Shown here: in pieces, positions 17,360 through 49,577 of the stretch
Layout: every line of letters begins with the position of its first letter
Numbering within the stretch: the first letter of the stretch is position 1
Origin: Candidatus Nanohalarchaeota archaeon
Lineage (GTDB): Archaea > Nanohalarchaeota > Nanosalinia > Nanosalinales > Nanosalinaceae
DNA length: 64,000 nt
Direction of reading: 5' to 3'
Assembly (NCBI GenBank): GCA_022729235.1
Contig: JALDAJ010000001.1
Location: 160,001 to 224,000, forward strand
Translations under genes and position numbers: made by a program
The notes under the pieces: generated by a model
What the model saw: the letters and a program-made list of their open reading frames with translations, nothing else
Database searches by the model: none
What the model was told of the DNA's origin: nothing

Positions 17360-18540
17360 AACTCCTGGATAAATTCTACCTGTTCATCTGAAAGATCGAG
17401 TTGCTCTGCTACCTCAGGATTATGAGCTATAACCCTGGACAGAAACGGCATCATCTGCTTTGAATCCTTTGAGGAGACGTGAAGTCTCTCACCCAGCTTT
17501 TTACCAAGTTCCTGAAGCTTATTCCGTGAAGCCCGGGAAGCACCCATACGCTGTATCTTTGAGGGATACTGGTAGCGCGTCCAGCCCTCGTACTTCTCCT
17601 CCTTGCCGAGAGCCACACCTACCGTCGATAACAGGTAGACATACTTCAAAAGCTTCCAGTTCTGCGTGCTACGAATCCTTCCATTGAAAACATCAGCCTG
17701 TGAAATACGGTTGTACGCCTCCGCAACGTCCCTCTCTTTCTGGTATTCACGCGGAACATTCTCTCTCAACCACTGCATAAACGTGTCCGCGTCCTCGTCA
17801 AGATCATCTGTCGCCTGGCTAGCCGTTCTAGCAGTAGTGGTCTTGAAAACTATCTTCAACGCCTCGAAAACATCTTTCTCAGAGTCACGGTAGCCCAGTG
17901 AACCAAGGTCATCAGTAGTCAGTTCTTCGCGACCCCTCGCCACTGACTCAAGATCGTTTATCGCAGACCTCATCTGTCCTCCAGCCTGCCTCGCGATACG
18001 CTTCACTGCATTCTCCTCATAAGATATTCCCTCCTCCTCAAGCACCTGCTTCAGGTGAGCCGTGATAGAATTAGTGTGGACCGAACCGATTTCAATCATC
18101 TTCGACTTCTCCCGCAGCGAACGTATCTTCGAATCATACGCATCATTAGCAGTCATAACCACGGGGAACCGGGACTCATCTACGATACGGTTCAACTCCT
18201 GCGTCCCACCCCTATCCGAGACGCCCATACCGTCAACCTCATCTATCAATATAAGTTTCTGTGAGCCGAAGAACGATGCCTGACGTGTCGCCTCCTTCAA
18301 TTCAGACTTCAACTTCTTCTTCGTACGGACATCAGAGGCGTTAGTCTCCACCAGCTCGTAGCCCAAATCATTCGCCAGCGCTTCCACCAGCGAAGTCTTA
18401 CCTGTCCCTGCCTGCCCATGGAGCAGTACCGGTCCATCGCCCTGCTCCCACTGCTCTATATGCTCCTTCAACTCCTTCTTCTGCTTCGAAGCACCACGGT
18501 ACTCATCCAGCGATTCAGGTCTGTACTTCTCTGTCCAGAT
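17356..18540 (-). CDS. rfcL: replication factor C large subunit, probable ATC start
   Basis: The frame extends upstream of 18471 to xWTEKYRP. Also GQAGTGKT, ETNASD and LIDEVDG motifs. Confidence 0.94.
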   Translation of the reverse strand: MWTEKYRPESLDEYRGASKQKKELKEHIEQWEQGDGPVLLHGQAGTGKTSLVEALANDLGYELVETNASDVRTKKKLKSELKEATRQASFFGSQKLILIDEVDGMGVSDRGGTQELNRIVDESRFPVVMTANDAYDSKIRSLREKSKMIEIGSVHTNSITAHLKQVLEEEGISYEENAVKRIARQAGGQMRSAINDLESVARGREELTTDDLGSLGYRDSEKDVFEALKIVFKTTTARTASQATDDLDEDADTFMQWLRENVPREYQKERDVAEAYNRISQADVFNGRIRSTQNWKLLKYVYLLSTVGVALGKEEKYEGWTRYQYPSKIQRMGASRASRNKLQELGKKLGERLHVSSKDSKQMMPFLSRVIAHNPEVAEQLDLSDEQVEFIQEF

Positions 18541-18541
18541 C

Positions 18542-19534
18542 CTATTTCACCTCATCAAAGACTTGTCTGTATTTATTTAACTCCTCATCGGGATCTCCCG
18601 TCTTCTCAGCCGCAAGGTAAAAGATTGCTTCAAAACCTTCTCTCACTGACCCAACTCTTATGGTACTCTTGTACTCCTCGTCAACCTCTTCTAGATCTTC
18701 TAGATCTTCTAAATCGATATCACGATCCACGTAACTCCCGAAATCGATTACTTCATCAGTAAACTCTCCATAAGGATCCATGAGAATCTGTGTCTGACCA
18801 TCTCTAAGATTGAAATACTCAGGTGGTTTGTCATCGAAAAACAGACCATATCCATTTTCATGACCTGACTTATCTGCCTCTATCTCAAGTCCTGTGACAA
18901 AAGGATGAGTTAATATCCCCTTCTCTTCAAGATAATCTCTAATCGCCTGCTCTAAACCATCTGAAATACTGTATTCATCTGCTTCAGTCAGAGCGTCCGC
19001 GTCTTTGTCATATATTTCCTCGTTATCCGACCTCGTGGTAACTACGTCGAATAAACCTATATAATCTGGATCCATCTGATTTAAAGCCTCTAACCCGGTT
19101 AAAGTGGCGTCTCTGTCAAGGAGTTCGAACTCCGCATCTCCCATGAACTCGCTGTTTATTACTTCATGGAAACCCGGCCAGTATTCACCTTCAAACTCTT
19201 CCGGTTCATAATCTTTTCTCTCCGCTATAAAATCTTCGCCGTGCATGAAAAGTTCAAATTCAAGACCGTTATCCCAGGACCTGAGTTTGGACAAAAACTT
19301 TATCCACGGATCGAGATCCCAGCCTCTGAAAGACTCCTCCATTATTTCCAGACCTTCAGAACCCTCTTTAACTAGTTCCTTACGTTCATGACCAGTTTCT
19401 TCAGCAGCACGCTCCAGTTCACCGAAAGAATAGTTCTCTTCAACAAATTCTGCAAGGCCTTCCCTGACAACAGCGGTGTTATCCTCAAGAGTCCCTTCCA
19501 GGTCTACCGCCACGTTCACCGCTTCTGCAGACAT
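18542..19534 (-). CDS. acidic HAD-superfamily-like protein
   Basis: VAVDLEGTL (motif I variant), VVTTR (motif II) and FFDD (motif IV). Confidence 0.6.
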   Translation of the reverse strand: MSAEAVNVAVDLEGTLEDNTAVVREGLAEFVEENYSFGELERAAEETGHERKELVKEGSEGLEIMEESFRGWDLDPWIKFLSKLRSWDNGLEFELFMHGEDFIAERKDYEPEEFEGEYWPGFHEVINSEFMGDAEFELLDRDATLTGLEALNQMDPDYIGLFDVVTTRSDNEEIYDKDADALTEADEYSISDGLEQAIRDYLEEKGILTHPFVTGLEIEADKSGHENGYGLFFDDKPPEYFNLRDGQTQILMDPYGEFTDEVIDFGSYVDRDIDLEDLEDLEEVDEEYKSTIRVGSVREGFEAIFYLAAEKTGDPDEELNKYRQVFDEVK

Positions 19535-19539
19535 TCTAG

Positions 19540-20496
19540 CTACCTGCCCCCAAGATCAGCTATTTTAGCCAGAAGGGCCTCTATCTGGATGTCGCTGCTT
19601 CCGCCTTCCGCGATCCTGAACTCGAACTCTCCCAGGTTTTCTATAATCTCGAGCTTGCCTTCCTCGGAGATATCCAGGTCGAACACCTCGCGGTGAATCG
19701 AGTTGATAACGTCCTGACCGTCAAGACCTCTGTCAATCATCAGCTCCGAAAGCTCATCTCTAGCATCCATGAAATTGCCGTCCAGAGCCGATTCAAGTAT
19801 CTCGTTAATCTCCTCCGGTCTCAAGGACGCGGCAGAGTCGTAGATATTCTCTTCCTCTATCTTGTCCCGCTGGATGGCACCGGTCTGTAGTATGTTCGTG
19901 ACTCGCCGGAGGTCGCCGCCAGCGACCCTTATCACGGCATCGACCGCGCCCTGTGTTATCTTGAAATCCTCATTCTCCGCAACCCTCTTAATGTAGTCCT
20001 TCACGTCATCCTCCGCCAACCTGTTAAAGCGGAAGACGGCGCATCGGGACTGGATAGGGTCGATAATCTTGGAGGAGTAATTGCAGGAAAGTATGAAACG
20101 GGTATTCTCCGAGAACTGCTCCATCGTTCTACGCAGTGCCTGCTGGGCGTCAGCTGTTAGAGCATCTGCCTCGTCAAGAAACATTATCTTGTAGTCCGCA
20201 TTGATGGACTTGGTGCGGGCGAAGTTCTTGATGTTCTCCCTGACAACGTCGATACCTCTTTCGTCAGAGGCGTTGGTCTCCATAAAGTTCTGTTTCCAGT
20301 CATCACCGTAAAGATCCTTCGCGAGCGCGATAGCTGAGGTCGTCTTACCAGTTCCCGCTGGACCGGCGAACATCATGTGAGGGACAGAGTCCTCCTCCAC
20401 GAATGCTTTCAGCCGGGACTTTATGTCCTTATGGTTTATAACCTCATCAAGAGTGTCAGGACGGTATTTTTCAGTCCATATATCGATCTCAGCCAT
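19540..20496 (-). CDS. rfcS: replication factor C small subunit
   Basis: WTEKYRP, GPAGTGKT, NASDERGID, LDEADAL and IQSRC motifs. No intein. Confidence 0.97.
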   Translation of the reverse strand: MAEIDIWTEKYRPDTLDEVINHKDIKSRLKAFVEEDSVPHMMFAGPAGTGKTTSAIALAKDLYGDDWKQNFMETNASDERGIDVVRENIKNFARTKSINADYKIMFLDEADALTADAQQALRRTMEQFSENTRFILSCNYSSKIIDPIQSRCAVFRFNRLAEDDVKDYIKRVAENEDFKITQGAVDAVIRVAGGDLRRVTNILQTGAIQRDKIEEENIYDSAASLRPEEINEILESALDGNFMDARDELSELMIDRGLDGQDVINSIHREVFDLDISEEGKLEIIENLGEFEFRIAEGGSSDIQIEALLAKIADLGGR

Positions 20497-21785: not shown

Positions 21786-22640
21786 TCACGCCTCATCCAT
21801 GTAGACTGTTCTGATAGGGTAAGGGATGTCTATGCCGGCCTCATCGTACTTCTGCTTGACCAGTTCCGTTACTTCTGAAGATGCTTTTACCGGGCTGGAA
21901 CCTGAATTACGGATCCATCCTCTCAGCTTCAGGTTGACCGCTGAGTCTCCAAGCTCATCAACAAGAACCTCTGGCTCCGGGTCTGACTCAATGTTTTCCG
22001 CCTTCTCCAAGGCGCTCTCCGCCAGCTCTTTCGCCTCCTTGATATCGTCGTCGTATCCGATACCTACCATGACATCGAACCGGCGTTTCTTGTACCCTGT
22101 ATTATTGATAACTGTTTCATTGTACAGCTTGGAGTTCGGTACGATAACCATCCGTCCATCATAAGTCTTGATTTCAGACGCCCGCAACCGTATATCCTTG
22201 AGCGTTCCTTCCTGTTCACCTACTTTTAACCGGTCTCCTATACGGAATGGGCGGTAAACCAGGAGGAATAGTCCTGAGATGAAATTAGCTATCAGTTCTT
22301 TCAGGGCGAATGATATGCCAAGTCCTATGAGACCGACAGCAGCGCCAAGAGCCGAAAAAGGAGCTCCAAAGACTCCTAGGACAGCTACGAACGTTAGAGG
22401 GTAGATGATGTATGCAGTCAGCCTTTTTGCGGACGTGATGGTGTGCTCATCCCCGTTATGCCTTTCTATACCTCGCTCAACGACGACATTAGACAGCCGG
22501 TTGATAGACCATCCAAGAAACGCGACCAGCAACGCTGCTAGAAGAGTATACCTGCTTATATTGTACCGCGCCAGAAAGCTCGATGCCGCCGCAAAAACGT
22601 CCTCTCTTGCCACATTTTCCCTCACAGCTACGACATTCAT
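21786..22640 (-). CDS. mscS: small-conductance mechanosensitive channel
   Basis: GLGISFALKELIANFISG, RPFRIGD, VPNSKL and IDIPYP motifs. Start moved to the ATG at 22640. Confidence 0.93.
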   Translation of the reverse strand: MNVVAVRENVAREDVFAAASSFLARYNISRYTLLAALLVAFLGWSINRLSNVVVERGIERHNGDEHTITSAKRLTAYIIYPLTFVAVLGVFGAPFSALGAAVGLIGLGISFALKELIANFISGLFLLVYRPFRIGDRLKVGEQEGTLKDIRLRASEIKTYDGRMVIVPNSKLYNETVINNTGYKKRRFDVMVGIGYDDDIKEAKELAESALEKAENIESDPEPEVLVDELGDSAVNLKLRGWIRNSGSSPVKASSEVTELVKQKYDEAGIDIPYPIRTVYMDEA

Positions 22641-37302: not shown

Positions 37303-37644
37303 ATGCGTTTCGAAGCCGAGGTCATAACCGAGGAAATCCTCCCTGCGATAAGGAGTATCATCGCCACTAGACTTCACCAGGAGTACGGTCTGACACAGGA
37401 GGAAATAGCCAACAGGCTCGAAGTCACACAGCCCGCTGTATCTCAATATTTAAGCCAGTCGCGCGCCGACCAGGACGTGGTAGAGAAATTGAGAGATGAC
37501 CCGCAGGTAGACATCATGCTGGACGATGCCTCGGGTAACGCCGCGAAGGGTAAAGAGTTCTCAGGAAATGTCTCGCAGGTAATCGAAACCGTGCGTGACA
37601 AGGGACTGCTCAAAGAGAAGTTTCAGGACACCAAGAAACTCTAG
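37303..37644 (+). CDS. HTH transcriptional regulator (COG2522-like)
   Basis: EILPAIRSIIA and LTQEEIANRLEVTQPAVSQYL motifs. Confidence 0.88.
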   Translation: MRFEAEVITEEILPAIRSIIATRLHQEYGLTQEEIANRLEVTQPAVSQYLSQSRADQDVVEKLRDDPQVDIMLDDASGNAAKGKEFSGNVSQVIETVRDKGLLKEKFQDTKKL

Positions 37645-39698
37645 TTCTCGAAGCCGTCCCACTCGAATTCTTCTGCCTCTTCTTCAGCCCTATCCACTAG
37701 ACCTTTCAGCCTATCCTCGATATCTTCGATAATCCCTGTATCTATGTCATATCCTTCAAGGAGCTCTCCCGTATCATAGTCTTCACTTCTGTAGAGGAAA
37801 CCTCCTACGCCCGCTATAACAAGCAGGGTTAATCCGCCTCCAACCATAAGAAACGTGTTCCTGCGGTCTATCCTGTGCTCTCTTTCAATATCCTCAAGAG
37901 CGTCACTAGCCTTCTGGTAATCCTCTTCTATATTTTCAAGGTAGTCAGAGATTTTATAGTACTCCCCATCTTCCTTTGCATCTCTTGCCCCATCTATCCT
38001 GTTCCTGAAGTCAGAGGTCTCTGATTCCAGTCTCTCCATCCTCTCACCGGATAGCACGCCTTCAAGCCGCGTTATATTTTGCTCTAGAAGTTCGAACCTG
38101 TCCTCGTACCCGGACAGATCAGACTCAAGCCGTTCTTCCTGGTCTCCCGTAGCCCTGACCGCAAGAGTTGTCTCCTCCGATACAAGGTCTCCGGCAGAAA
38201 TCACCAGGTCATAACCCCCGACATCAGCTTCATCAGTCGGTACAGTGAACATGGCTGTTGTCGAGTTGCCAGGTCTGAGTTCATCAATCGTATAAGTATC
38301 GGAGAAAAGTTCGTCAGCAGAGGCAGATATATCAGTTCCGGGAATGAAAACATCACCAGTATTCTCCACCGTTACGCTGAAAGTCGTTGATTCCCCTGCC
38401 TCTACCGAGACGTTTTCAGGGGTTGAAAAGCTGAGGTCAGGATCTGCGTCCGGGTCATAAGTGAACTCACTAGTCTCTGCTTCACTCCACCAGCCTGCAT
38501 TATCCCGGAATCTGACGTAAAGCGTGTGTTCTCCAGCATCGAGACCGGCTACCGAAGCAGTGAACTCGTCCGTGGTATCATTTATTTCAACCGGGGCGCC
38601 ATCACCGGTATCAAGACCATCATCGTTGTAGAAGTATTCCAGCTCATCCAGTCCTGAAGCATCAAATGCATCGAACTCGACAGGGAAGTTATCATTGACC
38701 AGTCCGGAGGGCATCTCAAGAGAAACTACTGTCGGCGGACTCGCGTCAAAGACAAACTCGAAAAATCCTTCCTCCTCACAGTTACCCGCCATGTCACAGA
38801 CCTCAACAGTCAGGTTTACCTCTTGATCAGTGTAGTCGTCATCTATTTCGCAGCTGGTCGTAGTATCAGTTATACCTTCCACGCTATCAATAGTATCTCC
38901 ATCCTCATCCTGGCATTCCAGGTTAACGCCTTCATCCTCACTGTTATCCGCGATTTCTATCGTAAGACTGTCACCATCCTCCCATTTATGGATTCCAGGG
39001 GACGGGGTGAAACTTGGGTCAACCTCGAAGTCAATCGTGGTATCGACCGTGAACTCCCATGTTTCAGAATCACTGTTATAACCTTCATCAAAGGCTGTAG
39101 CTTCGATAGTATACTCTCCGTCATCAAGCCCATCTCCAAGTTCTATAGTACAGGTTTCTGAATCGGAATCCGCGTCGATGCAGTCTTTCTCATCGATTTC
39201 ATCACCGTCACCGTCCTCGATAGATACCGTGATATTCTCTATATTCGACGTCTCATCGGTAGCCTCGACCTCTATTTCGGGTTCATCATCATTGGTGAAT
39301 TCATCCGGTCTCTCGAGAGAAAGCTCCGGGTTATTGTTATCTACCGTGACTTCTATTATCTCCCAGTCCTCCTCACTTTCTGTCTCGTTAGCCCTGAGTT
39401 CGTAAGTCCCTGTACCTGCATCCGACAGATCCCAGTCATAGACCCAGTCGTTATCATCTTCAGACTCGAAATCATACAGTTCGCCCCATTCGTCATCGGA
39501 GTCTTCCCGGTAAGAAAACGCGACAGGACCTGAGTCACTATTCACCGTTAGTGGGTACTCCTCCGCCATCGCATCAGATATAACACCCTCGTCCTCTGGA
39601 TCAACCCATTCAAGCGCTACCGCGGCTCCGACAAGCAGTGCTGTAGCAGAAACCAGTACTGTTAATTTGGAGACCGGGTTTTTGGTGGCGGAGAACAC
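37641..39698 (-). CDS. large acidic cell-surface protein (Ig-like repeats, coiled coil, C-terminal TM)
   Basis: Signal peptide, beta-sandwich-like repeats (GTYEL, GEYTIEATAFD, GEHTLYVRFRDNAG), VTVENTG and a C-terminal TM. Confidence 0.82.
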   Translation of the reverse strand: MFSATKNPVSKLTVLVSATALLVGAAVALEWVDPEDEGVISDAMAEEYPLTVNSDSGPVAFSYREDSDDEWGELYDFESEDDNDWVYDWDLSDAGTGTYELRANETESEEDWEIIEVTVDNNNPELSLERPDEFTNDDEPEIEVEATDETSNIENITVSIEDGDGDEIDEKDCIDADSDSETCTIELGDGLDDGEYTIEATAFDEGYNSDSETWEFTVDTTIDFEVDPSFTPSPGIHKWEDGDSLTIEIADNSEDEGVNLECQDEDGDTIDSVEGITDTTTSCEIDDDYTDQEVNLTVEVCDMAGNCEEEGFFEFVFDASPPTVVSLEMPSGLVNDNFPVEFDAFDASGLDELEYFYNDDGLDTGDGAPVEINDTTDEFTASVAGLDAGEHTLYVRFRDNAGWWSEAETSEFTYDPDADPDLSFSTPENVSVEAGESTTFSVTVENTGDVFIPGTDISASADELFSDTYTIDELRPGNSTTAMFTVPTDEADVGGYDLVISAGDLVSEETTLAVRATGDQEERLESDLSGYEDRFELLEQNITRLEGVLSGERMERLESETSDFRNRIDGARDAKEDGEYYKISDYLENIEEDYQKASDALEDIEREHRIDRRNTFLMVGGGLTLLVIAGVGGFLYRSEDYDTGELLEGYDIDTGIIEDIEDRLKGLVDRAEEEAEEFEWDGFEN

Positions 39699-43564: not shown

Positions 43565-43606
43565 CCACGCGGTTTTTTATAACCCAAGTATCTAGTTGAT
43601 GGTTAT

Positions 43607-45124
43607 ATGGTCCTCGACACCGCTCTGCTCGCTCCGGCGAGCGGAGAAGACGCCCTGTTAAGGGTGCTTTTTGCCCTTCTGATACTTGTATTTGGACATA
43701 TAGGTGTGAAACTTGTAGGGCTTGCATCGAGAAAGTTATGGATTCAGGGCAGAGACTTGAACAAGAAAGAGGTTAAAGAAAGACATGAAGCCCTGCAGTA
43801 CCTTACGTACCTGTTTGACGGCGCAGTAGTCGTAGTTGCTCTATTGTATCTCAACGCAGGAATTACTACGGATATAACCACGGAATTTGTACAGTTCATG
43901 CCTGAACTCCTATCTGTCATCCTACTTGGTATACTCGGAATCATACTCATCAACCTCGGTGTAAAGCTAGGGGCAGAATTCCTCGAAATCCTCGGTATGA
44001 AAAGCTACCTCCGGGAAGTAGGTCTCTCGGGAAGCGCACTAAATGTTATCGCAGGACTGGTCAAGGCGTTCCTATACCTTATCCTCCTCCAGATAGCTCT
44101 CGAACAGCTCGGTGTAGGAGAGACTTTCATCAGCGAGCTCGTGACTGCCTCATCCTGGGCTGCCGCACTACTGGCTGCAGGGCTACTTTTCTACGGGTTT
44201 AAGGATTTGTTCCAGAACTTTGCTGCAGGGATTTACCTCAAAAACTCAAGGCTAGTGAGACCTGGAGAAGAGATTAACATGGGTGATGAAACCGGAGAGA
44301 TAAAAGAGATCTCGCTCTTCAGCGCCACAGTTAATACTGACACAGGTTATACCCTGCTAACCCCTAACAAGGAGGTCATGAACTCAGATATCCGTTTCAA
44401 GAGGACTAAAAGCGACGTGGAGACCCTGGAGGATATGAAGGACTACTTCGTCGCCGAAAAGGAGTCCTACAGCGGACCTGCATCGATGGAGATGGCGCTT
44501 GATATCTTCGGCTACAGGAAAGATCAGGAAGAGATAGACGAAGCAGCGGAAAGCCTTGATCCGGAAGACCTCATCACTGCGGTAGAGGAACTGACAGAAG
44601 AAGAGGTAAGAGGTGCTTTCGTACCTCAAGAGAAGATAACAGACATAGGCGACGAATTCAAGGCATGGTTCAATGACGGGGCGTTGCTAACAACATACTT
44701 CGACCGCGAGAAACTGTTCTCCGAGTCGGGCGGAGAGTACGCTCTCTCAGTAGGCTTTGAATCCGATGAGACGCTCGTGATAGACCCGAGCTCGAAGACA
44801 GGCGGAGTTTACTACGTCAACAGGCAGAAACTCTATGAGGCGATGGAGAACAGAGGCTATCTGGTGCTCGCACCTGAGGGAACAACCGCTTACTGGCGTA
44901 TAAAGAACGATTTGATATACGGAGACAAGAACTACTACGAGGAACTCTCCAAGACCCTGGAAACACGGCTGACAAAGATTCTGAGACAGGGAAGAATACT
45001 GAAGAATGTTATGCCTTCGTCCGTGAAGAGCTACATGGAGAACTGGAGATCAGAGCGATACGTCACACGCATATGGCAACCAGAAAAACAGGGGGGAGAA
45101 AATGAGGCTTCTAAAAATAACTGA
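43607..45124 (+). CDS. MscS-family channel fused to an inactive peptidase C39-like domain
   Basis: TMs plus KDLFQNFAAG...PGEEI...PN (MscS). The C-terminal region has SYSGPASMEMAL, GEYALSVG and LVIDP. Confidence 0.75.
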   Translation: MVLDTALLAPASGEDALLRVLFALLILVFGHIGVKLVGLASRKLWIQGRDLNKKEVKERHEALQYLTYLFDGAVVVVALLYLNAGITTDITTEFVQFMPELLSVILLGILGIILINLGVKLGAEFLEILGMKSYLREVGLSGSALNVIAGLVKAFLYLILLQIALEQLGVGETFISELVTASSWAAALLAAGLLFYGFKDLFQNFAAGIYLKNSRLVRPGEEINMGDETGEIKEISLFSATVNTDTGYTLLTPNKEVMNSDIRFKRTKSDVETLEDMKDYFVAEKESYSGPASMEMALDIFGYRKDQEEIDEAAESLDPEDLITAVEELTEEEVRGAFVPQEKITDIGDEFKAWFNDGALLTTYFDREKLFSESGGEYALSVGFESDETLVIDPSSKTGGVYYVNRQKLYEAMENRGYLVLAPEGTTAYWRIKNDLIYGDKNYYEELSKTLETRLTKILRQGRILKNVMPSSVKSYMENWRSERYVTRIWQPEKQGGENEASKNN

Positions 45125-45905
45125 CCAGGAGCACGGTCAACTCGATAGAGAGTTCGATGAGGTAGAATCGGCCGGAATCGATGATATATCACCCCAGATA
45201 ATAAACGGGGAGAAAAGCGTAGTTGTCAATGGTAGTTCGATATCAGATTACAACTCGGCCTTCCTTGAGATACCCTCGAAAAATGCGATATTCGGGCGTG
45301 TGCTGCTAGAAGCTATAGAGGAGGAGAATGTTACAGTCAACTATCCTTCGATAGCCTTTTTCGTAATGGCCAAGAAAAACTATCTCTACTACGTCCTACA
45401 CCAGAAAGACATTCCTGCCCCGAGGACAGTAGCAGTTGCATCAGAGAAGGCAGCCAGAAATGTAGAGAAAGAGTTGAAAGGACCGCTAGTTGCCAGGCGG
45501 ATAGAAGACATGGAAGAGGTAGAAAGGAAAAAACTGGAGACGGTTGACGGGATACACGATTTCGCGGAAGGATCGGAATACGAGGAAGATATACTCCTCT
45601 TCCACGAGTACAGCAACGGGGATAAATACAAGTGCCTCGTAATCGGGGACAGTATCTTATCTCTCCAGGACACCTCAGACAACTGGAGGTTTGATAATAG
45701 CAGTCTCCAGTACTCCAACCTTTCCAGCGACCGGAAGGAGACTGTTAAAAAGGCGGCAAGAGCTGTCGGAACCAGGTACGCAGAAGTGATACTTAGAGGA
45801 GACGAGATAACCGATATCAACCCCAACCCCGACCTCCAGATGTACTCAGATCTCTCAGGTAAAAACATCTACGGCAGTGTCGCGGAGGTCCTGAAAAATG
45901 AGTGA
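45102..45905 (+). CDS. RimK-like ATP-grasp protein, degenerate active site
   Basis: VNYPS...AKKNY...IPAPRT pattern, but lacks the K-x-x-x-G-x-x-G loop and has TDINPNP in place of EVN. Confidence 0.72.
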   Translation: MRLLKITDQEHGQLDREFDEVESAGIDDISPQIINGEKSVVVNGSSISDYNSAFLEIPSKNAIFGRVLLEAIEEENVTVNYPSIAFFVMAKKNYLYYVLHQKDIPAPRTVAVASEKAARNVEKELKGPLVARRIEDMEEVERKKLETVDGIHDFAEGSEYEEDILLFHEYSNGDKYKCLVIGDSILSLQDTSDNWRFDNSSLQYSNLSSDRKETVKKAARAVGTRYAEVILRGDEITDINPNPDLQMYSDLSGKNIYGSVAEVLKNE

Positions 45906-46788
45906 CACAAGGCTCGCAATAGTATACGGGGAAATCTCGACCAAGCACCAGCTAATTATGGAACGGGCAGAAGACATCTTCGACTCCGTTCTCGCAGCAC
46001 CGGTAGACGGATTAAAATACATCTACGGCAAGGACGAGACAAAAGTGCTTTACAAAGATATCGACCTCACCGAGTTCGACGCGGTCTACATAAGAATAGA
46101 TGACCGAGACGCTATGTTTGCGGAGCACCTTGTAGAAGTACTGAATGAGGAAGAAGTTATCACCCAGGCTGAGAACGACACATTTGCGTATGACTCCAAC
46201 AAGTTCTACAACATGAAAGTGCTTGCAGAAAACGGGGTGAACGTACCCGACTCCGTATACACTCTATCACCTGATGTAGCCGTTGAAGCAGCGGAGAAAC
46301 TTGGATACCCGGTTATAATGAAGACTGTCAAAGGCGCAGGCGGGGAAGGCGTTATGCGCGCAACATCCGAGAACGAACTAAAACCTGTGATGGATACGAT
46401 GAAATCACTGGAGCAAGAGATCTGTCTCCAGGAGTACAAGGAGCACGACGGCAGTGACACCCGGATGGTCGTGATAGGCAATCACGTAACAGGATACGGT
46501 CGTACCTCAGGCGGAGACGACTGGAGGTCAAATATATCTGCAGGAGGAGAACGAACAGAAGCAGAAATAGATGAGGAGAAAAGAGAGATAGCACTGAAAG
46601 CAGCCCGGTCAACCGGTTTCGATATATGCGGATGCGACATGATAGATACGGAAGAAGGCTTCTACGTCCTGGAAGTCAACGGAGCCTTCGCAGTTAACGA
46701 AAAAATGAACGAGATAATAGGCGATGACGTTATACTACGCCTAGTTGAAAGGATGCACGAGAAGGCTATTGAAAAGAATCGTGACTAA
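45898..46788 (+). CDS. RimK/LysX-family ATP-grasp ligase
   Basis: NKFY, LGYPVIMKTVKGAGGEGV, LQEY, DTR, DWRSNISAGG, GCD and LEVN motifs. Confidence 0.93.
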   Translation: MSDTRLAIVYGEISTKHQLIMERAEDIFDSVLAAPVDGLKYIYGKDETKVLYKDIDLTEFDAVYIRIDDRDAMFAEHLVEVLNEEEVITQAENDTFAYDSNKFYNMKVLAENGVNVPDSVYTLSPDVAVEAAEKLGYPVIMKTVKGAGGEGVMRATSENELKPVMDTMKSLEQEICLQEYKEHDGSDTRMVVIGNHVTGYGRTSGGDDWRSNISAGGERTEAEIDEEKREIALKAARSTGFDICGCDMIDTEEGFYVLEVNGAFAVNEKMNEIIGDDVILRLVERMHEKAIEKNRD

Positions 46789-47717
46789 CCCATAGATACC
46801 AGAGTTTCAACAAGCCCTTCTACAGTCGGAAGCTTCCGCTTCTTAATCTCTTCATCTTCATAGAAAGCGAGACCTGGCTTCGAATTGAATTCCAGAACCC
46901 ACGGCTTACCATCACTATCGATCATCATATCGACCGAGTATAGACAGGGCTCGTATTTACTGAATTTCTCTTTGACACCCTGAACAGTATCCAGAGCTGT
47001 CTCAGGAACTTCCTCAAGATCAACAAAAGTGATTTCACCCCCAAGATGCACATTACTCAGGAGCCCTTCATCCGGCGTCCTTATATAGGCGAGAGTGTTC
47101 TCCCCGTTCAAAACATAGACCCTTAGATCGTGGACTCCCTCGATACCCAGCTCTTCGATACCTTCAGTCTCTATGAAGCGTTGTACGAGCAGATCTTCTT
47201 CAGGTTCGAACTCTGAGATGTCCTCTATGACCTCTATACCTTTCCCTCCAAAATCGTATCTAGGCTTCACGATAACACGGTCATACTTCTCCAGCATATC
47301 TTTGACCGTCTTCCTATCCGCCTTCTTTGTCTCAGGAATAATACCAGGAAACTCTTGATAGGTTAGAAGCTTATCCTTGCATATCTCCTCAAGATCAAAG
47401 CGGTTCAATACCGGGAGAGCTCTGTTCAACTTTTTCTTCAGCGGAACTGTTTCATCATCAAATTTGAACTTATCGAAAACCACGTCTAACTCAACATCTT
47501 CGACCTCTCTCCAGCCCCCGTCTCTATAAGTAAACCCCTTTCTCAGCCCTGTATCTTCTATCCAGTTAAAATTAGCGATAAAGACCTTACCTCCTCTCTC
47601 TTCAGCAATCTCTGAGAAAATAGCGTAAGACGAGTTCATGTGATCTATATCTTCCCGAAACGGTCTACCTTCCTCACCATTAACCTCATCATCCCAGAGA
47701 ACACTGATTTTCTTCAT
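46785..47717 (-). CDS. ATP-grasp ligase
   Basis: CKDKLLTY, VKPRYDFGGKGI, LVQRFI, HDLR, SNVHLGG, SVD and LEFNSKPG motifs. ATG at 47717. Confidence 0.9.
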   Translation of the reverse strand: MKKISVLWDDEVNGEEGRPFREDIDHMNSSYAIFSEIAEERGGKVFIANFNWIEDTGLRKGFTYRDGGWREVEDVELDVVFDKFKFDDETVPLKKKLNRALPVLNRFDLEEICKDKLLTYQEFPGIIPETKKADRKTVKDMLEKYDRVIVKPRYDFGGKGIEVIEDISEFEPEEDLLVQRFIETEGIEELGIEGVHDLRVYVLNGENTLAYIRTPDEGLLSNVHLGGEITFVDLEEVPETALDTVQGVKEKFSKYEPCLYSVDMMIDSDGKPWVLEFNSKPGLAFYEDEEIKKRKLPTVEGLVETLVSMG

Positions 47718-47778
47718 AGAACAATCCGGTACTTCACCGCTTAAGTCACTTTTTAACAAGCGATAGGCAAGATATATT

Positions 47779-48999
47779 ATGGAAATCGATTTCTCCAGTG
47801 CGGGCGAAGAAACACTGGAAGAGGCGCTCTCAAACAACTCAGACCCGAGTGTGCACGTGTCAAGCGATAGACCCTTAGAAGACCTTTACAACGCCACGCT
47901 ACTCCTGAAGGACAAGGTAAGCGTCGTCAAGAACGCCGGCATCTCCAACCGCGTAGAAGAAAGAGAGCGGTTCATGGATGCATGGGACAACGGAAAAGGC
48001 TTTGAGCCTGACTTCGAGTTCCAGAACTTTCCCTATAACGCAGAAACCACGCTAATGGTGCTTGAGAAACTAAAACAGGAACTGGAAAAAATAGATCAGG
48101 AAACAATGAAGAAGTACGGCGCCAGAGAACTCGGAGCCCAAGACGTCAGAGATCTGTTTAAAGGACTCTTCCAGGAGTACAGGCTGTACGTCCAGCTGGT
48201 CGACTCTATAGACGACCGCGAAAGGTGGAAGAAGAACTCGCTGGAGATCTGGCCGATGATAGATCAGGGTCACGTAGATAAATGCCGGAAAAAGCTGGAG
48301 AAAGGCTTCAAAGTCGAAGAAAAAGACAAAGACTTGGACTCTCACGACCTCAAGTCGATGTGGAAGGAGGAATTAGAGTGTTTGGGCGTGGAATGGAACA
48401 TTGAAGTACGTGAAGTAGGAGGATGCTTCAACATACCAGAGGAGAGAACAGTTGTAGTCGCTGACGGAAGCAACGAGAAACGATATTATTCACGAGAAGA
48501 AGCTCGCATGTTGACTATGCACGAGCTCTTCCACGTGACAAGAGCTTACAACGGAATCAAAGCCGGTGAGAGCGCAGGACTACCTCCCATCCTCGGACTT
48601 CACACCCCTTTTTATGACATGACAGAGGAGGGCGGCGCCATCTACCGCGAAAAGCAGACTAACGTAGACTACCCGGAGAAAGGAAAAGACTACTACCTGA
48701 GGGCATTGGCAGCATACTACCAGCATCAAGATATCGAGTTCCAGGAGATAGTAGAGAAACTGGTCGACCTAGGAGGTAGCGTCGAAAGAAGCTTCTACTT
48801 AGCCGCGAGAAACCGCGAGATGCTCCGGCACCACATCTACCTCGGCGGCTACTGGAAACAGTGGAAGCAGAGGGAAAACGTGGAACCATTACTTCTAGGA
48901 AAAGTCAACCCGGAATGGGCGGAGAGGTTATGGAGTGAAGTAGAAGCAGAAGGTATGCTGGAGAAACCACCGGTTACTTCCAACGACCTTTTCGACTAG
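47779..48999 (+). CDS. DUF1704 / MATCAP-like zinc carboxypeptidase
   Basis: P-x-F-x-F/Y N-terminal motif, HELFHVTRAYNG (HExxH), TEEGGA, IYLGGY and LLLGKV. Confidence 0.75.
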   Translation: MEIDFSSAGEETLEEALSNNSDPSVHVSSDRPLEDLYNATLLLKDKVSVVKNAGISNRVEERERFMDAWDNGKGFEPDFEFQNFPYNAETTLMVLEKLKQELEKIDQETMKKYGARELGAQDVRDLFKGLFQEYRLYVQLVDSIDDRERWKKNSLEIWPMIDQGHVDKCRKKLEKGFKVEEKDKDLDSHDLKSMWKEELECLGVEWNIEVREVGGCFNIPEERTVVVADGSNEKRYYSREEARMLTMHELFHVTRAYNGIKAGESAGLPPILGLHTPFYDMTEEGGAIYREKQTNVDYPEKGKDYYLRALAAYYQHQDIEFQEIVEKLVDLGGSVERSFYLAARNREMLRHHIYLGGYWKQWKQRENVEPLLLGKVNPEWAERLWSEVEAEGMLEKPPVTSNDLFD

Positions 49000-49085: not shown

Positions 49086-49577
49086 ATGGACTTCGTTGTA
49101 AGAGTCGATTATTCAACTGGTTTGGAGGATAAAATCGGATCAAAAGCTGACAGTAGACAAGAACTTTCTGAAATACGAGACCAGTTCTATAAGCCCAACG
49201 GAACGAAGTTGTCAGATTTCAGTCCGCGAGATGTAATCGTTAGAAAACGTACATTTCCAGAGAAAAAGACGCTGGTCAAAATAAACATTATCCAAAAGCC
49301 CCTGGGATACACAGACACAAAAGAGGATGTTGAGAACATTGAAGACTATGAAAAATGGGGAGAATTTACCTCTTACGCCGTCGAATACAGGCTGACCGTA
49401 GAGAACAAGAAAATTCCGATCCTGATAGAAACATTTGACTTCGGCAAATTTATCAAGATAGAATCTCCGTCACCAGAGATACTAGACAGTATTCTCCAAG
49501 AACTTAACCTAGATAGAAGCGAGATAATTGAAAAGAACTCGGCCGAACTACTCGCAGAAGAGAGGGATATGATTTAG
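49086..49577 (+). CDS. degenerate CYTH-like protein
   Basis: RDQFYK and FGKFIKIES...LNL...I...AELL resemble a CYTH C-terminus. The ExExK motif is missing. Confidence 0.5.
   Translation: MDFVVRVDYSTGLEDKIGSKADSRQELSEIRDQFYKPNGTKLSDFSPRDVIVRKRTFPEKKTLVKINIIQKPLGYTDTKEDVENIEDYEKWGEFTSYAVEYRLTVENKKIPILIETFDFGKFIKIESPSPEILDSILQELNLDRSEIIEKNSAELLAEERDMI

Follow-up and report, generated by a model that had tools for sequence, protein, structure and literature searches.

What holds together, within a few kilobases, a mechanosensitive channel, three ATP-grasp proteins and a zinc metallopeptidase? The question is raised by a 64,000-nucleotide stretch of the genome of a Candidatus Nanohalarchaeota archaeon (hereafter the window; positions 160,001–224,000 of the forward strand of contig JALDAJ010000001.1, assembly GCA_022729235.1), in which five genes, here designated P1 to P5, lie between positions 43607 and 48999. 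An earlier note, made from the sequence of the window, had proposed a reversible writer-eraser system for peptides tied to the channel. The answer that we favour, tentatively and with slightly less than even confidence, is that the locus encodes a writer-eraser system for peptides that is peculiar to this lineage and docks on an MscS-type channel; in this genome, P5 would act as the eraser and P1 as the receptor or scaffold. The evidence that carries this answer is a complementarity, seen among related genomes, between the catalytic state of P1 and the presence of P5.

Catalytic state of the channel protein and content of the adjacent slot

P1 (43607–45124, plus strand, 505 aa) comprises an MscS-type channel, a predicted cytoplasmic domain with a papain-like fold resembling C39 peptidases and phytochelatin synthases, basic helices and a disordered acidic tail. 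In its orthologues, the papain-like domain mostly carries the motifs ..Q..SYCGPAS.., ..GHYVLS.. and ..DPS.., and the corresponding segments in the window read E..SYSGPAS, GEYALS and DPS. In the alignment, Ser289 (44471–44473) stands at the Cys position and Glu377 (44735–44737) at the His position; the upstream Gln is also gone, and only Asp393 (44783–44785) is retained. We take these columns to be the catalytic Gln, Cys, His and Asp of C39 peptidases from the known motif of that family and from the position of the Pfam match. The domain is thus predicted to be catalytically dead in this genome, and its ancestral form was, to judge from the alignment, an intact thiol peptidase. The term 'pseudopeptidase' in the earlier note is therefore correct for this genome, because Ser289 and Glu377 replace the Cys/His pair, but it does not hold for the ancestral form.

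The genome of the window, which consists of one 1.03-Mb contig, was compared with those of 40 relatives (41 genomes, representing 31 genera and five coded families of one order), and locus maps were drawn for 37 stretches from 35 of the relatives, in which the open reading frames (ORFs) were labelled with phmmer. The gene order is the same in every mapped locus: trkA and trkH on one strand, followed on the opposite strand by aIF2-gamma, P1, P2 and P3, a slot, and then a PIN gene and rpo7 in the orientation of P1. The slot after P3 is the sole variable part of the locus, and four sets of genes were found in it. The first contains a 345-aa MobB-like P-loop protein encoded convergently to P3, to which a fusion of an AstE/AspA-like enzyme with a biotinyl/lipoyl-like domain is added in some loci. 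In the second, a GCS2/YbdK-like carboxylate-amine ligase is the fourth gene on the operon strand, sometimes together with P4. The third has P4 in one copy or in two or three tandem copies, in most cases next to a divergently oriented P5, and the fourth combines an AstE/AspA-like enzyme, a second RimK-like ligase (113–120 bits with rimK_fam) and a P5 of another subtype (EEGL, not EEGG), again divergent. Each version of the locus contains the P2/P3 pair, a second ATP-using enzyme (MobB-like P-loop protein, GCS2-like ligase, P4 or second RimK-like ligase) and a hydrolase, for which either the C39-like domain is intact or P5 is present, alone or together with an AstE/AspA-like enzyme. All of these parts are predicted to lie on the cytoplasmic side. 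The MobB-like gene is present in nine of the 41 genomes and the GCS2-like gene in seven, directly beside P3 in all nine and directly after P3 in all seven; in the genome of the window, no GCS2-like gene is present and no MobB-like gene was found with the query used. The accessory families (P4, P5, GCS2-like and MobB-like) are ligases, peptidases or NTPases and are almost confined to this slot. The five genes, which had been proposed as one fixed system, are thus better described as a core of three genes and a variable slot, which elsewhere holds GCS2-like, MobB-like, AstE/AspA-like or other RimK-like genes.

Both catalytic positions could be read in 34 P1 proteins (the window and 33 loci). The Cys/His dyad is kept in 15 of them and lost in 19, where the replacements (at the Cys and His positions) are S/E, C/N, T/H, S/G, A/H, C/E, S/R, S/Q, T/Q, T/D, Q/H, Q/S, R/R, A/R and P/Q. 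None of the 15 loci with an intact dyad has P5 in the slot, and all 15 have a MobB-like (eight loci) or GCS2-like (seven loci) gene there. Among the 19 loci with a broken dyad, P5 is in the slot in 16, and neither a MobB-like nor a GCS2-like gene occurs in any. Three loci with a broken dyad have no P5 in the slot; two of these genomes (G006 and G012) have a strong P5 gene on another contig.

A tree of aIF2-gamma alone was poorly resolved (seven of 30 inner branches well supported), and on it the dyad state changes nine times, with only two changes forced. It was therefore replaced by a tree of seven concatenated neighbouring genes (33 rows and 1996 columns, after five short loci had been dropped), in which 18 of 30 inner branches are well supported. 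On this tree, the dyad state changes four times, at least three of which are forced by supported branches, and P5 needs five changes. P5 changes concordantly with the dyad in all three independent contrasts, and this replication involves two subtypes of P5, each with a different family of partner ligase. The clade of the window (the window and locus L013) is nested among genomes with an intact dyad.

P5 appears, from these comparisons, to replace the peptidase of the channel itself; on the simplest reading, the dyad and the MATCAP-like enzyme are functionally equivalent, and either is dispensable where the other is present. This complementarity ties P5 to the triad of P1, P2 and P3 functionally, beyond its position, and the equivalence would mean that each of them hydrolyses a product of the neighbouring ligases. 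The writer-eraser idea of the earlier note thereby gains independent support, in that a MATCAP-like gene is present almost exactly where the P1 dyad has been lost.

The inactive domain has apparently been retained rather than left to decay. In family f1, the mean pairwise identity of the C-terminal domain is 0.48 among proteins with a broken dyad and 0.69 among those with an intact one, compared with 0.49 and 0.52, respectively, for the channel part and 0.62 in both groups for the C-terminal helices. Families f3 and f4 behaved similarly. Because the groups compared are phylogenetically unmatched, this result is indicative only.

Predicted structures and activities of the five proteins

The channel part of P1 (residues 1–266, 43607–44404) was defined by PF00924, PDB matches, hydropathy combined with the distribution of Lys and Arg, and the secondary structure of an AlphaFold (AF2) model. 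PF00924 (MscS beta domain) matches residues 200–262 with 32.8 bits (cut-off, 20.2), and solved MscS and YnaI chains match from residue 93 or 143 to residue 266 (E 2e-6 to 6e-6). Hydropathy and the distribution of Lys and Arg indicate five transmembrane (TM) helices, an external N-terminus and an internal C-terminus. The full-length model (pLDDT 73.2) is consistent with this topology, showing helices at residues 16–46, 53–84, 88–128, 144–167 and 172–213 and beta strands at 222–253; the last of the five helices (172–213) is a long, TM3-like helix after which the beta domain follows. The third, alpha/beta (vestibule) domain of MscS was not detected in P1, for which PF00924 was the sole Pfam match, and the MscS models matching in 27 members of the P1 family were PF00924 and PF05552 only, with no canonical vestibule domain. 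In the model, the papain-like domain begins at about residue 268, directly after the beta domain, and this domain is predicted to face the cytoplasm.

The papain-like domain itself (residues ~268–433, 44408–44905) was recognised from alignments, the predicted fold and Pfam matches within the family. The sequence of the window alone gives only faint C39_2 and Phytochelatin matches (E ~0.15; 0.18 with the C39 models), the score with Phytochelatin PF05023 being 11.7 bits against a cut-off of 24.9. In the P1 family (n = 27), however, Peptidase_C39_2 PF13529 is matched by 22 members, Peptidase_C39 PF03412 by 17 and Phytochelatin by 10 (E <= 0.01). The profile of the domain family had no match at E <= 1 among PDB sequences, and the fold was therefore assigned through a structure model, that of the C-terminal 236 aa computed with the family alignment (pLDDT 80.8). 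The best Foldseek match of this model is the phytochelatin-synthase-like protein Alr0975 of Nostoc (2bu3, the glutathione acyl-enzyme form; E 1e-6); the pseudomurein endoisopeptidase PeiR, papain-like domains of CdiA toxins and the C39 domains of ComA and PCAT1 also match (E 1e-6 to 1e-3 for ComA, PCAT1 and Alr0975). VIA, an aligner independent of Foldseek, gave Z scores of 17.4 for PeiR, 15.6 for ComA, 15.5 for PCAT1 and 15.5 for Alr0975, and 12.1 for 3zua. The last of these is the inactive C39-like domain of a haemolysin exporter, where it serves to bind the substrate, and it is a precedent for the retention of a dead domain. The model thus places the C-terminal domain in the papain fold of clan CA, in the group of C39 peptidases and phytochelatin synthases, a fold which leaves the substrate undefined.

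The C-terminal extension of P1 (residues 434–505, 44906–45121) was delimited by low pLDDT, conservation and a comparison of tails. The AF2 model has basic helices of low confidence at residues 441–481 and a disordered acidic tail at 484–505, and nine Lys or Arg residues lie within residues 434–482, in conserved basic helices. An A/T-rich, TATA-like element (TTTTTTATAA, 43574–43583, plus strand) can be read in the sequence ~25 nt 5' of the ATG of P1; it may be P1's own promoter, giving a separate, leaderless P1-P2-P3 transcript.

P2 (45102–45905, plus strand) overlaps P1 by 23 nt, and P3 (45898–46788, plus strand) overlaps P2 by 8 nt; these overlaps suggest that the three genes form an operon. 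P2 has no Pfam match. Its family nevertheless aligns end to end with that of P3 (hhalign probability 99.6%, E 4e-24, 18% identity over 276 columns), and it is a full-length paralogue of P3 in which, in P3 numbering, K142R, G146D, G148E, G149E, G151E, D187K, R189K, R202D, S211F, N212D and D247I have been substituted. The label of a degenerate ATP-grasp protein follows from the replacement of the Gly-rich loop and the Mg-binding Asp. P2 scores 26.7 bits with rimK_fam (cut-off, 143.4) and weakly matches the RimK and MptN models of NCBIfam; the mean column identity of its family is 46% (36 sequences), and P2 is best read as a conserved pseudo-enzyme.

P3 is a RimK-type amino-acid ligase with an apparently intact catalytic site and is predicted to be active. 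It matches RimK PF08443 with 122 bits, and the ATP-binding K142, the loop residues G146, G148, G149 and G151, R189, R202, R210-S211-N212 and the Mg ligands D247, E259 and N261 are invariant across 35 orthologues. Its profile matches solved RimK structures (5zct and 4iwx) at 1e-43, ArgX/LysX at 1e-26 to 1e-18 and GshB at 2e-8. With TIGR00768 (rimK_fam), P3 scores 144.5 against a cut-off of 143.4, which is marginal, and it remains below the cut-offs of all equivalogs (S6 ligase PRK10446, 107.3 against 331; LysX, 111.8 against 275.6; MptN, 114.8 against 350; CofF, 82.6 against 300; GshB, 61.5 against 272). P3 is therefore not an orthologue of LysX, CofF, MptN, GshB or the RimK that modifies S6. 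A role of P3 as LysX/ArgX was rejected, since the real LysX of this genome, which has a pre-ATP-grasp domain and LysY/K/J/Z neighbours (a semialdehyde dehydrogenase, an M20 peptidase, a class-III aminotransferase and an amino-acid kinase), is encoded ~750 kb away. The LysW-type lysine/arginine cluster there is complete (~951800–959700 of the genome), which is notable in a symbiont genome of 1 Mb, and DapA and DapB-like genes and an AsnC-type regulator adjoin it.

P4 (46785–47717, minus strand) is an ATP-grasp ligase of the YheC/D, ATPgrasp_ST and TTL-like kind, which overlaps P3 convergently by 4 nt. Its ORF spans 46785–47837, but relatives align only from residue ~41, so that the start is probably Met41 at 47717; the divergent spacer to P5 is then 61 nt (47718–47778). 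P4 matches YheC/D PF14398 with 58.0 bits (cut-off, 26.8), ATPgrasp_ST with 52 and TTL PF03133 with 41.7 (cut-off, 20.1), the TTL match being short (residues 172–224 only). The catalytic residues K151, D263 and E276 are invariant in 26 members of the family, including all tandem copies, and ArgX, GshB, RimK and TTLL6/7 are distant kin (E 1.5e-5 to 1e-3 for TTLL7 and TTLL6).

P5 (47779–48999, plus strand) is a zinc metallopeptidase resembling MATCAP (DUF1704). It matches PF08014 (MATCAP) with 36.3 bits against a cut-off of 27, and its family profile aligns with human MATCAP (KIAA0895-like, 7z5g) at E 6e-14 with both motifs in register. The HExxH motif (H248, E249 and H252; residues 248–252, 48520–48534), R255, N258-G259, Y279 and the EEG motif (E283-E284-G285, 48625–48633) are invariant in 18 sequences. 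The QEGLA equivalog TIGR02421 gave 49.9 bits on P5, short of its cut-off of 338.65, and a search of the window's own genome with this model returned no matches, as it also did for the controls, so that its silence carries no information. The close homologues of P5 that bear names are all nanohaloarchaeal and are called 'tyrosine/phenylalanine carboxypeptidase domain-containing protein' by NCBI. In the 10 loci in which it was measured, the window included, the spacer between P5 and the divergent ligase gene is 35–68 nt long (six loci with P4 and four with a RimK-like second ligase); in the window it holds an A/T-rich element (CTTTTTAACA), which is a candidate promoter.

The earlier note had deduced most of these features from the sequence alone, and the ORF list and the Pfam and NCBIfam searches bear out the five ORFs and their coordinates. 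Its descriptions of P1 as an MscS::C39-like fusion, of P2 as a degenerate ATP-grasp protein, of P3 as an intact RimK-like ligase and of P5 as a MATCAP-like enzyme with HExxH and EEG motifs all agree with the results above, as does the arrangement of P4, convergent on P3 and separated from P5 by 61 nt if Met41 is the start. The 'three ATP-grasp ligases' are indeed three ATP-grasp proteins, but only P3 and P4 look active. Orthology of the ligases to CofF, LysX or GshB, which had been named as a reason to abandon the idea, does not apply to P3.

Distribution and genomic neighbourhood

P1 was found in 37 of the 41 genomes (split at contig ends in two), and P2 and P3 were each found in 38, always side by side; the triad is contiguous in 38 of the 41. 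A profile of P2 detected the family in 65 of 70 genomes of the phylum, in each case between aIF2-gamma and PIN/rpo7. Among high-quality genomes it is present in 27 of 28, and 29 of 32 genera are represented. P1-P2-P3 is therefore close to a core module of Nanohaloarchaeota. The co-occurrence expected by the earlier note is thus borne out for these three genes, with P4 and P5 standing beside them in a subset only.

In one search, 191 relatives of the C-terminal domain of P1 were found. A pattern scan that covered 185,579 prokaryote species, each represented by a single genome, yielded 54 loci. One of these is a weak bacterial match (26% identity, E 1e-4), and the titles of the other 53 are of the Nanohaloarchaeota type, uncultured archaeon or euryarchaeote or, for some metagenome-assembled genomes from soda lakes, Aenigmatarchaeota, Nanobdellati or Asbonarchaeum. 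A profile search of 1.84 billion representative proteins gave 93 matches at E <= 1e-3. The strongest 62 (E <= 1e-10) are nearly all proteins of 480–545 aa with the domain at ~250–500, or fragments of such proteins, and the weaker ones are small, stand-alone C39-like proteins. On these results, the MscS-C39 fusion looks specific to this lineage, and the wider spread across DPANN and CPR genomes that had been envisaged was not seen. Public records already carry annotations of the individual genes, under the names 'mechanosensitive ion channel domain-containing protein', 'C39 family peptidase' and 'tyrosine/phenylalanine carboxypeptidase domain-containing protein'. In the full-text literature that was searched, we found no description of the MscS-C39 fusion or of its link to RimK-type ligases, and no pairing of DUF1704/MATCAP/QEGLA with ATP-grasp proteins.

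Several further features of the slot were observed. The MobB-like protein (for example, L014 9999–11033, minus strand, and L038 6474–7514, plus strand) has an N-terminal barrel-like part and weak similarity to MobB, CbiA and DUF1611; with 64% identity between members of two coded families, it is more conserved than P1 to P3, and a further type of amidoligase, or an NTPase partner, is a possible identity for it. It occurs only beside P3 and, where P1 is readable, only with an intact Cys/His dyad (eight of nine genomes; P1 is cut off in G039). Its bacterial look-alikes form strong clusters of unnamed proteins in the ESM Atlas (score 0.98). The AstE/AspA-like fusions (succinylglutamate desuccinylase/aspartoacylase with a biotinyl/lipoyl-like domain) occupy the slot in families f3 and f4 (L040 8054–9124, plus; L044 6158–7219, minus; L037 5767–6858, plus; L045 2–1135, plus) and are weakly similar to DoeB. 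In G035, a member of f3 with an intact dyad and a MobB-like gene in the slot, a strong P4-like gene (E 2e-85) and, on another contig, a weak P5-like gene were found (contigs C16 and C4); either this genome departs from the slot rule or it has the accessory pair in a second copy. In the window, an ORF of 163 aa (49086–49577, plus strand) with no Pfam or NCBIfam match separates P5 from the PIN gene. The gene order is rigid apart from this ORF, which would be an orphan or else an insertion that evolves fast. It was considered as a conserved precursor or substrate and rejected, as phmmer found no relative of it in any of the 37 related loci.

Additional MscS-type genes were also seen. The window contains a second, canonical one at ~22071–22349 (minus strand), within a 345-aa open frame and with 28% identity to the beta-domain region of P1. 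Families f3 and f4 have a further canonical MscS gene, of small size (285–330 aa), directly upstream of trkH-trkA on the same strand and divergent from aIF2-gamma-P1-P2-P3, so that an osmoregulatory block adjoins the triad; this gene stands between aIF2-gamma and trkH in L034, L036–L040, L042 and L044 and is not at that place in the window. Here, a 685-aa protein with Big_13, CARDB, Big_7 and SpaA-like Ig-fold domains, probably a surface protein, is encoded next to trkA (37641–39698, minus strand). GC skew is negative over 16001–42000 of the window, reaching -0.28 at 18001–20000, and the cumulative skew falls to ~42 kb and then rises, a pattern that probably reflects the strand of the genes. 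Scans of the window for tRNA genes and Rfam families found nothing, and a sigma-70 promoter and terminator scan, the model of which is ill-suited to an archaeon, gave counts no higher than in shuffled sequence.

A proposed peptide writer-eraser system and its alternatives

The cluster belongs with systems that combine a RimK-type ligase, a dedicated peptidase and a membrane protein with a papain- or transglutaminase-like domain, of which RimK/RimB and RloABC are examples. In Pseudomonas, RimK is paired with RimB, a dedicated glutamate-specific peptidase (PMC11957791). The locus shares with RimK-RimB (RimABK of Pseudomonas and E. coli) a RimK-type alpha-L-amino-acid ligase and a dedicated peptidase that removes the product of the ligase. 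It differs in that P3 is no S6-ligase equivalog (107 against 331 bits), archaea lacking the bacterial ribosomal protein bS6, and in that the eraser would be either a MATCAP-like metallopeptidase or a domain of papain fold borne by a channel. The module also includes P2, a dead paralogue that has been conserved. An eraser of the RimB type was rejected, as the genome of the window has no match to the RimB-type retropepsin PF05618 (control, found in two of 14 genomes); PF11814 (DUF3335) likewise had no match there (control, found in one of 14).

The RloABC-type system of Pseudomonas, which is needed for growth in hypo-osmotic medium, likewise comprises a cytoplasmic ATP-grasp ligase, a membrane protein with a (pseudo)thiol-peptidase-fold domain and a peptidase cleaving poly-Glu (PMC11957051). 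In contrast to that system, the membrane component here is an MscS channel with a C39-like domain rather than a 7TM protein, the papain-like domain is cytoplasmic rather than periplasmic and ancestrally active, the peptidase classes differ and homology is limited to the ATP-grasp fold, so that the resemblance is one of logic. A second comparison is with the enzymes of tubulin tails, on which the carboxypeptidase MATCAP acts. The TTL-related ligase P4 is divergently paired with P5 of the MATCAP family, as TTL/TTLL ligases have their counterpart in MATCAP/TMCP; P4, however, fits YheC/D and ATPgrasp_ST better than TTL, the partner ligase in f4 is RimK-like, and no tubulin-type substrate is known here.

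The C39 domains of ComA and PCAT1 and the inactive domain of HlyB have the same fold (Z 12–15.6) and are likewise (pseudo)peptidases on the cytoplasmic face of a membrane conduit, but that conduit is an ABC transporter rather than an MscS-type channel, and the partners here are RimK-type ligases; neither an ABC transporter nor an ORF for a double-glycine precursor was found in the cluster. Among MscS-family channels with extra cytoplasmic domains, and MscCG, P1 shares the TM3-like pore helix and the beta domain and is distinguished by a papain-fold domain where the alpha/beta vestibule domain would be. MscCG of Corynebacterium links MscS-type channels with glutamate efflux. A survey by Iyer, Abhiman, Burroughs and Aravind (2009) reportedly predicted gene neighbourhoods for peptide tags and amidoligases, in which ATP-grasp and GCS2/GS-like enzymes accompany peptidases as well as membrane proteins that have inactive transglutaminase- or papain-like domains; its predictions probably cover the theme but not this fusion, the genomes used here being later than that survey. 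Mechanosensitive channels beside a novel gene have been mentioned in a preprint on halophilic archaea, for a different lineage (10.1101/2023.07.03.547478).

Under the writer-eraser reading that we tentatively prefer, P3, probably complexed with its dead paralogue P2, would build a short acidic peptide with ATP in the cytoplasm, and a second, interchangeable ligase, here P4, would join in the writing. The peptide would most likely be an alpha-linked chain of the oligo- or polyglutamate type, either free or attached to a carrier or a protein C-terminus. The papain-fold domain below the channel pore would bind this peptide, and its ancestral form would also cleave it. In this genome, the domain without Cys and His would be a binding or structural module only, and hydrolysis would have passed to the MATCAP-like carboxypeptidase P5, which is transcribed divergently from P4. 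The amount or length of the peptide could in this way be coupled to solute release through the channel, in the osmotic homeostasis of glutamate and K+. Of this scheme, the comparisons show the identities of the domains, their catalytic states, the conserved triad and the complementary occurrence of dyad loss and P5; we infer that the ligases and peptidases share a substrate; the kinship of P3 to RimK points to glutamate as the added residue; the gene overlaps suggest that the proteins may form a physical complex; and an osmotic role may be proposed from the channel, the neighbouring osmoregulatory genes and the analogy with Pseudomonas.

A number of observations weigh against this reading. The P2 family was not found in five of the 70 genomes, which are 61–93% complete (one of them 93%). 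G017, which is 99% complete, has a broken dyad and P4, and no P5 was found in it; G022, G031 and G035 have intact dyads and weak, unlinked P5-like matches (E 1e-8 to 6e-12); P4 occurs alongside an intact dyad in three loci; and AstE/AspA-like enzymes are found with both dyad states. The concatenated tree took in the columns of P2 and P3, those of P1 having been left out, and it provides only three independent contrasts, with which a sign test cannot reach significance (p 0.25). The region from trkA to rpo7 (~10 kb) is syntenic phylum-wide, so that the adjacency of the triad genes themselves is partly an inherited order. For the same reason, the proximity of trkH and trkA, which the earlier note had pointed out and which lie 1.8 kb upstream of P1 in the window, is weak evidence for an osmotic role. 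The cluster has no gene for a carrier or precursor, the gaps in the window being 42, 61 and 86 nt. Finally, P3 reaches the cut-off of the general rimK_fam model only and is far under that of every equivalog, so that glutamate is no more than a candidate for the added residue.

Among the other explanations, the one that survives best, although we consider it unlikely, is that P3 and P4 extend the acidic tail of P1 or P2 and so tune the gating of the MscS channel, with P5 or the thiol peptidase of P1 trimming the tail. In its favour, the P1 tail is disordered and acidic. RimK acts on acidic protein C-termini (PMC11957051). MATCAP does so too. The P2 tail ends in Asp or Glu in 18 of 36 sequences, and families f3 and f4 have a conserved P1 end of the KLDEFTxxDE type. 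The last residue of P1, however, varies among 33 orthologues: it is Glu in 12, but Asn in nine, Ser in three, Arg, Gly or Gln in two each and Thr, Asp or Ile in one each, and the tail in the window ends in KNN. Moreover, acidic tails are ordinary here, as neighbouring proteins consist of 15–26% Asp and Glu.

A metabolism of gamma-glutamyl or thiol peptides, in which GCS2-type and GshB-like ATP-grasp enzymes make a compound that the phytochelatin-synthase-like domain of P1 processes and the channel releases, is distinctly unlikely in our view. The thiol nucleophile is gone in the window, P3 is far nearer RimK (1e-43) than GshB (2e-8), and the glutathione synthase model scores 61.5 on it against a cut-off of 272. 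The glutathione acyl-enzyme structure of Alr0975 is indeed the best Foldseek match (E 1e-6), and 10 of the 27 family members match Pfam Phytochelatin; yet VIA fits PeiR, ComA, PCAT1 and Alr0975 about equally (Z 15.5–17.4). Similarly, the GCS2/YbdK-like gene is the fourth operon gene in seven of the 41 genomes, all with an intact dyad, but the other 34, including that of the window, are without it, and the triad is mostly kept there.

We regard as very unlikely the possibility that, by analogy with C39 exporters of the ABC type and with graspetide clusters, a peptide made or modified by the ATP-grasp enzymes is recognised or cut by the C39-like domain and leaves through the MscS-like pore, perhaps toward a haloarchaeal host. 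Such a role would fit the structural matches to ComA, PCAT1 and the inactive haemolysin-exporter domain 3zua, since a dead C39 domain can persist as a substrate binder, and some slot ligases weakly match graspetide maturases (E 1e-12 to 1e-13, well under the cut-off). P3, however, matches RimK far more strongly than any maturase, there is no room for a precursor gene in the cluster, and the MscS pore is not known to pass folded or long peptides. The near-universal presence of the genes in single copy in genomes of ~1 Mb, amid translation genes, is also housekeeping-like and unlike a trait of the bacteriocin type. Most improbable of all is that there is no joint system and that the order is inherited, with the channel-peptidase serving osmotic or proteolytic housekeeping and the RimK-type ligases acting on an unrelated target such as a translation component, for despite the phylum-wide synteny of the 10-kb neighbourhood, the flanking aIF2-gamma and Rpo7 genes and the binding of eIF2-gamma by the ATP-grasp protein CDC123 in eukaryotes (PMC4431377), P1 overlaps P2, and P2 overlaps P3, at their stop and start codons, turnover of the slot is limited to ligase, peptidase or NTPase genes found almost nowhere else in these genomes, and the catalytic state of P1 tracks the content of the slot.

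The writer-eraser reading can be carried one step further, to a form that we hold to be unlikely. The cage of the channel would then consist of seven (pseudo-)peptidase domains that read, and ancestrally erased, a polyglutamate-type chain made by the ligases, as an archaeal 'peptide code'. If this is true, the channel would be under a non-ribosomal peptide code, with RimK- and TTL-like ligases as its writers and a MATCAP-like carboxypeptidase as its eraser. Such a code would parallel, in a prokaryote, that of tubulin and would serve as an osmotic glutamate/K+ capacitor in cells with a genome of ~1 Mb. The preferred reading alone, if right, would already reveal a mode of regulating or using a mechanosensitive channel that is new, with a peptidase or peptide-receptor domain in place of the canonical vestibule. 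The locus would also be a natural experiment in interchangeable parts, in which a thiol peptidase and a MATCAP-type metallopeptidase exchange for one another and four kinds of second ligase or NTPase are used, and these interchangeable parts would point to a shared peptide product. The prokaryotic pairing of TTL-like and MATCAP-like enzymes would, in addition, bear on how the tubulin-tail-modifying enzymes of eukaryotes arose.

Nanohaloarchaeota are obligate symbionts that live in saturating salt with minimal genomes. The module is among their few near-universal features and was found here in no other group. Its near-universal presence in halophilic symbionts with such small genomes makes it likely that it matters for their response to osmotic change or for solute exchange.

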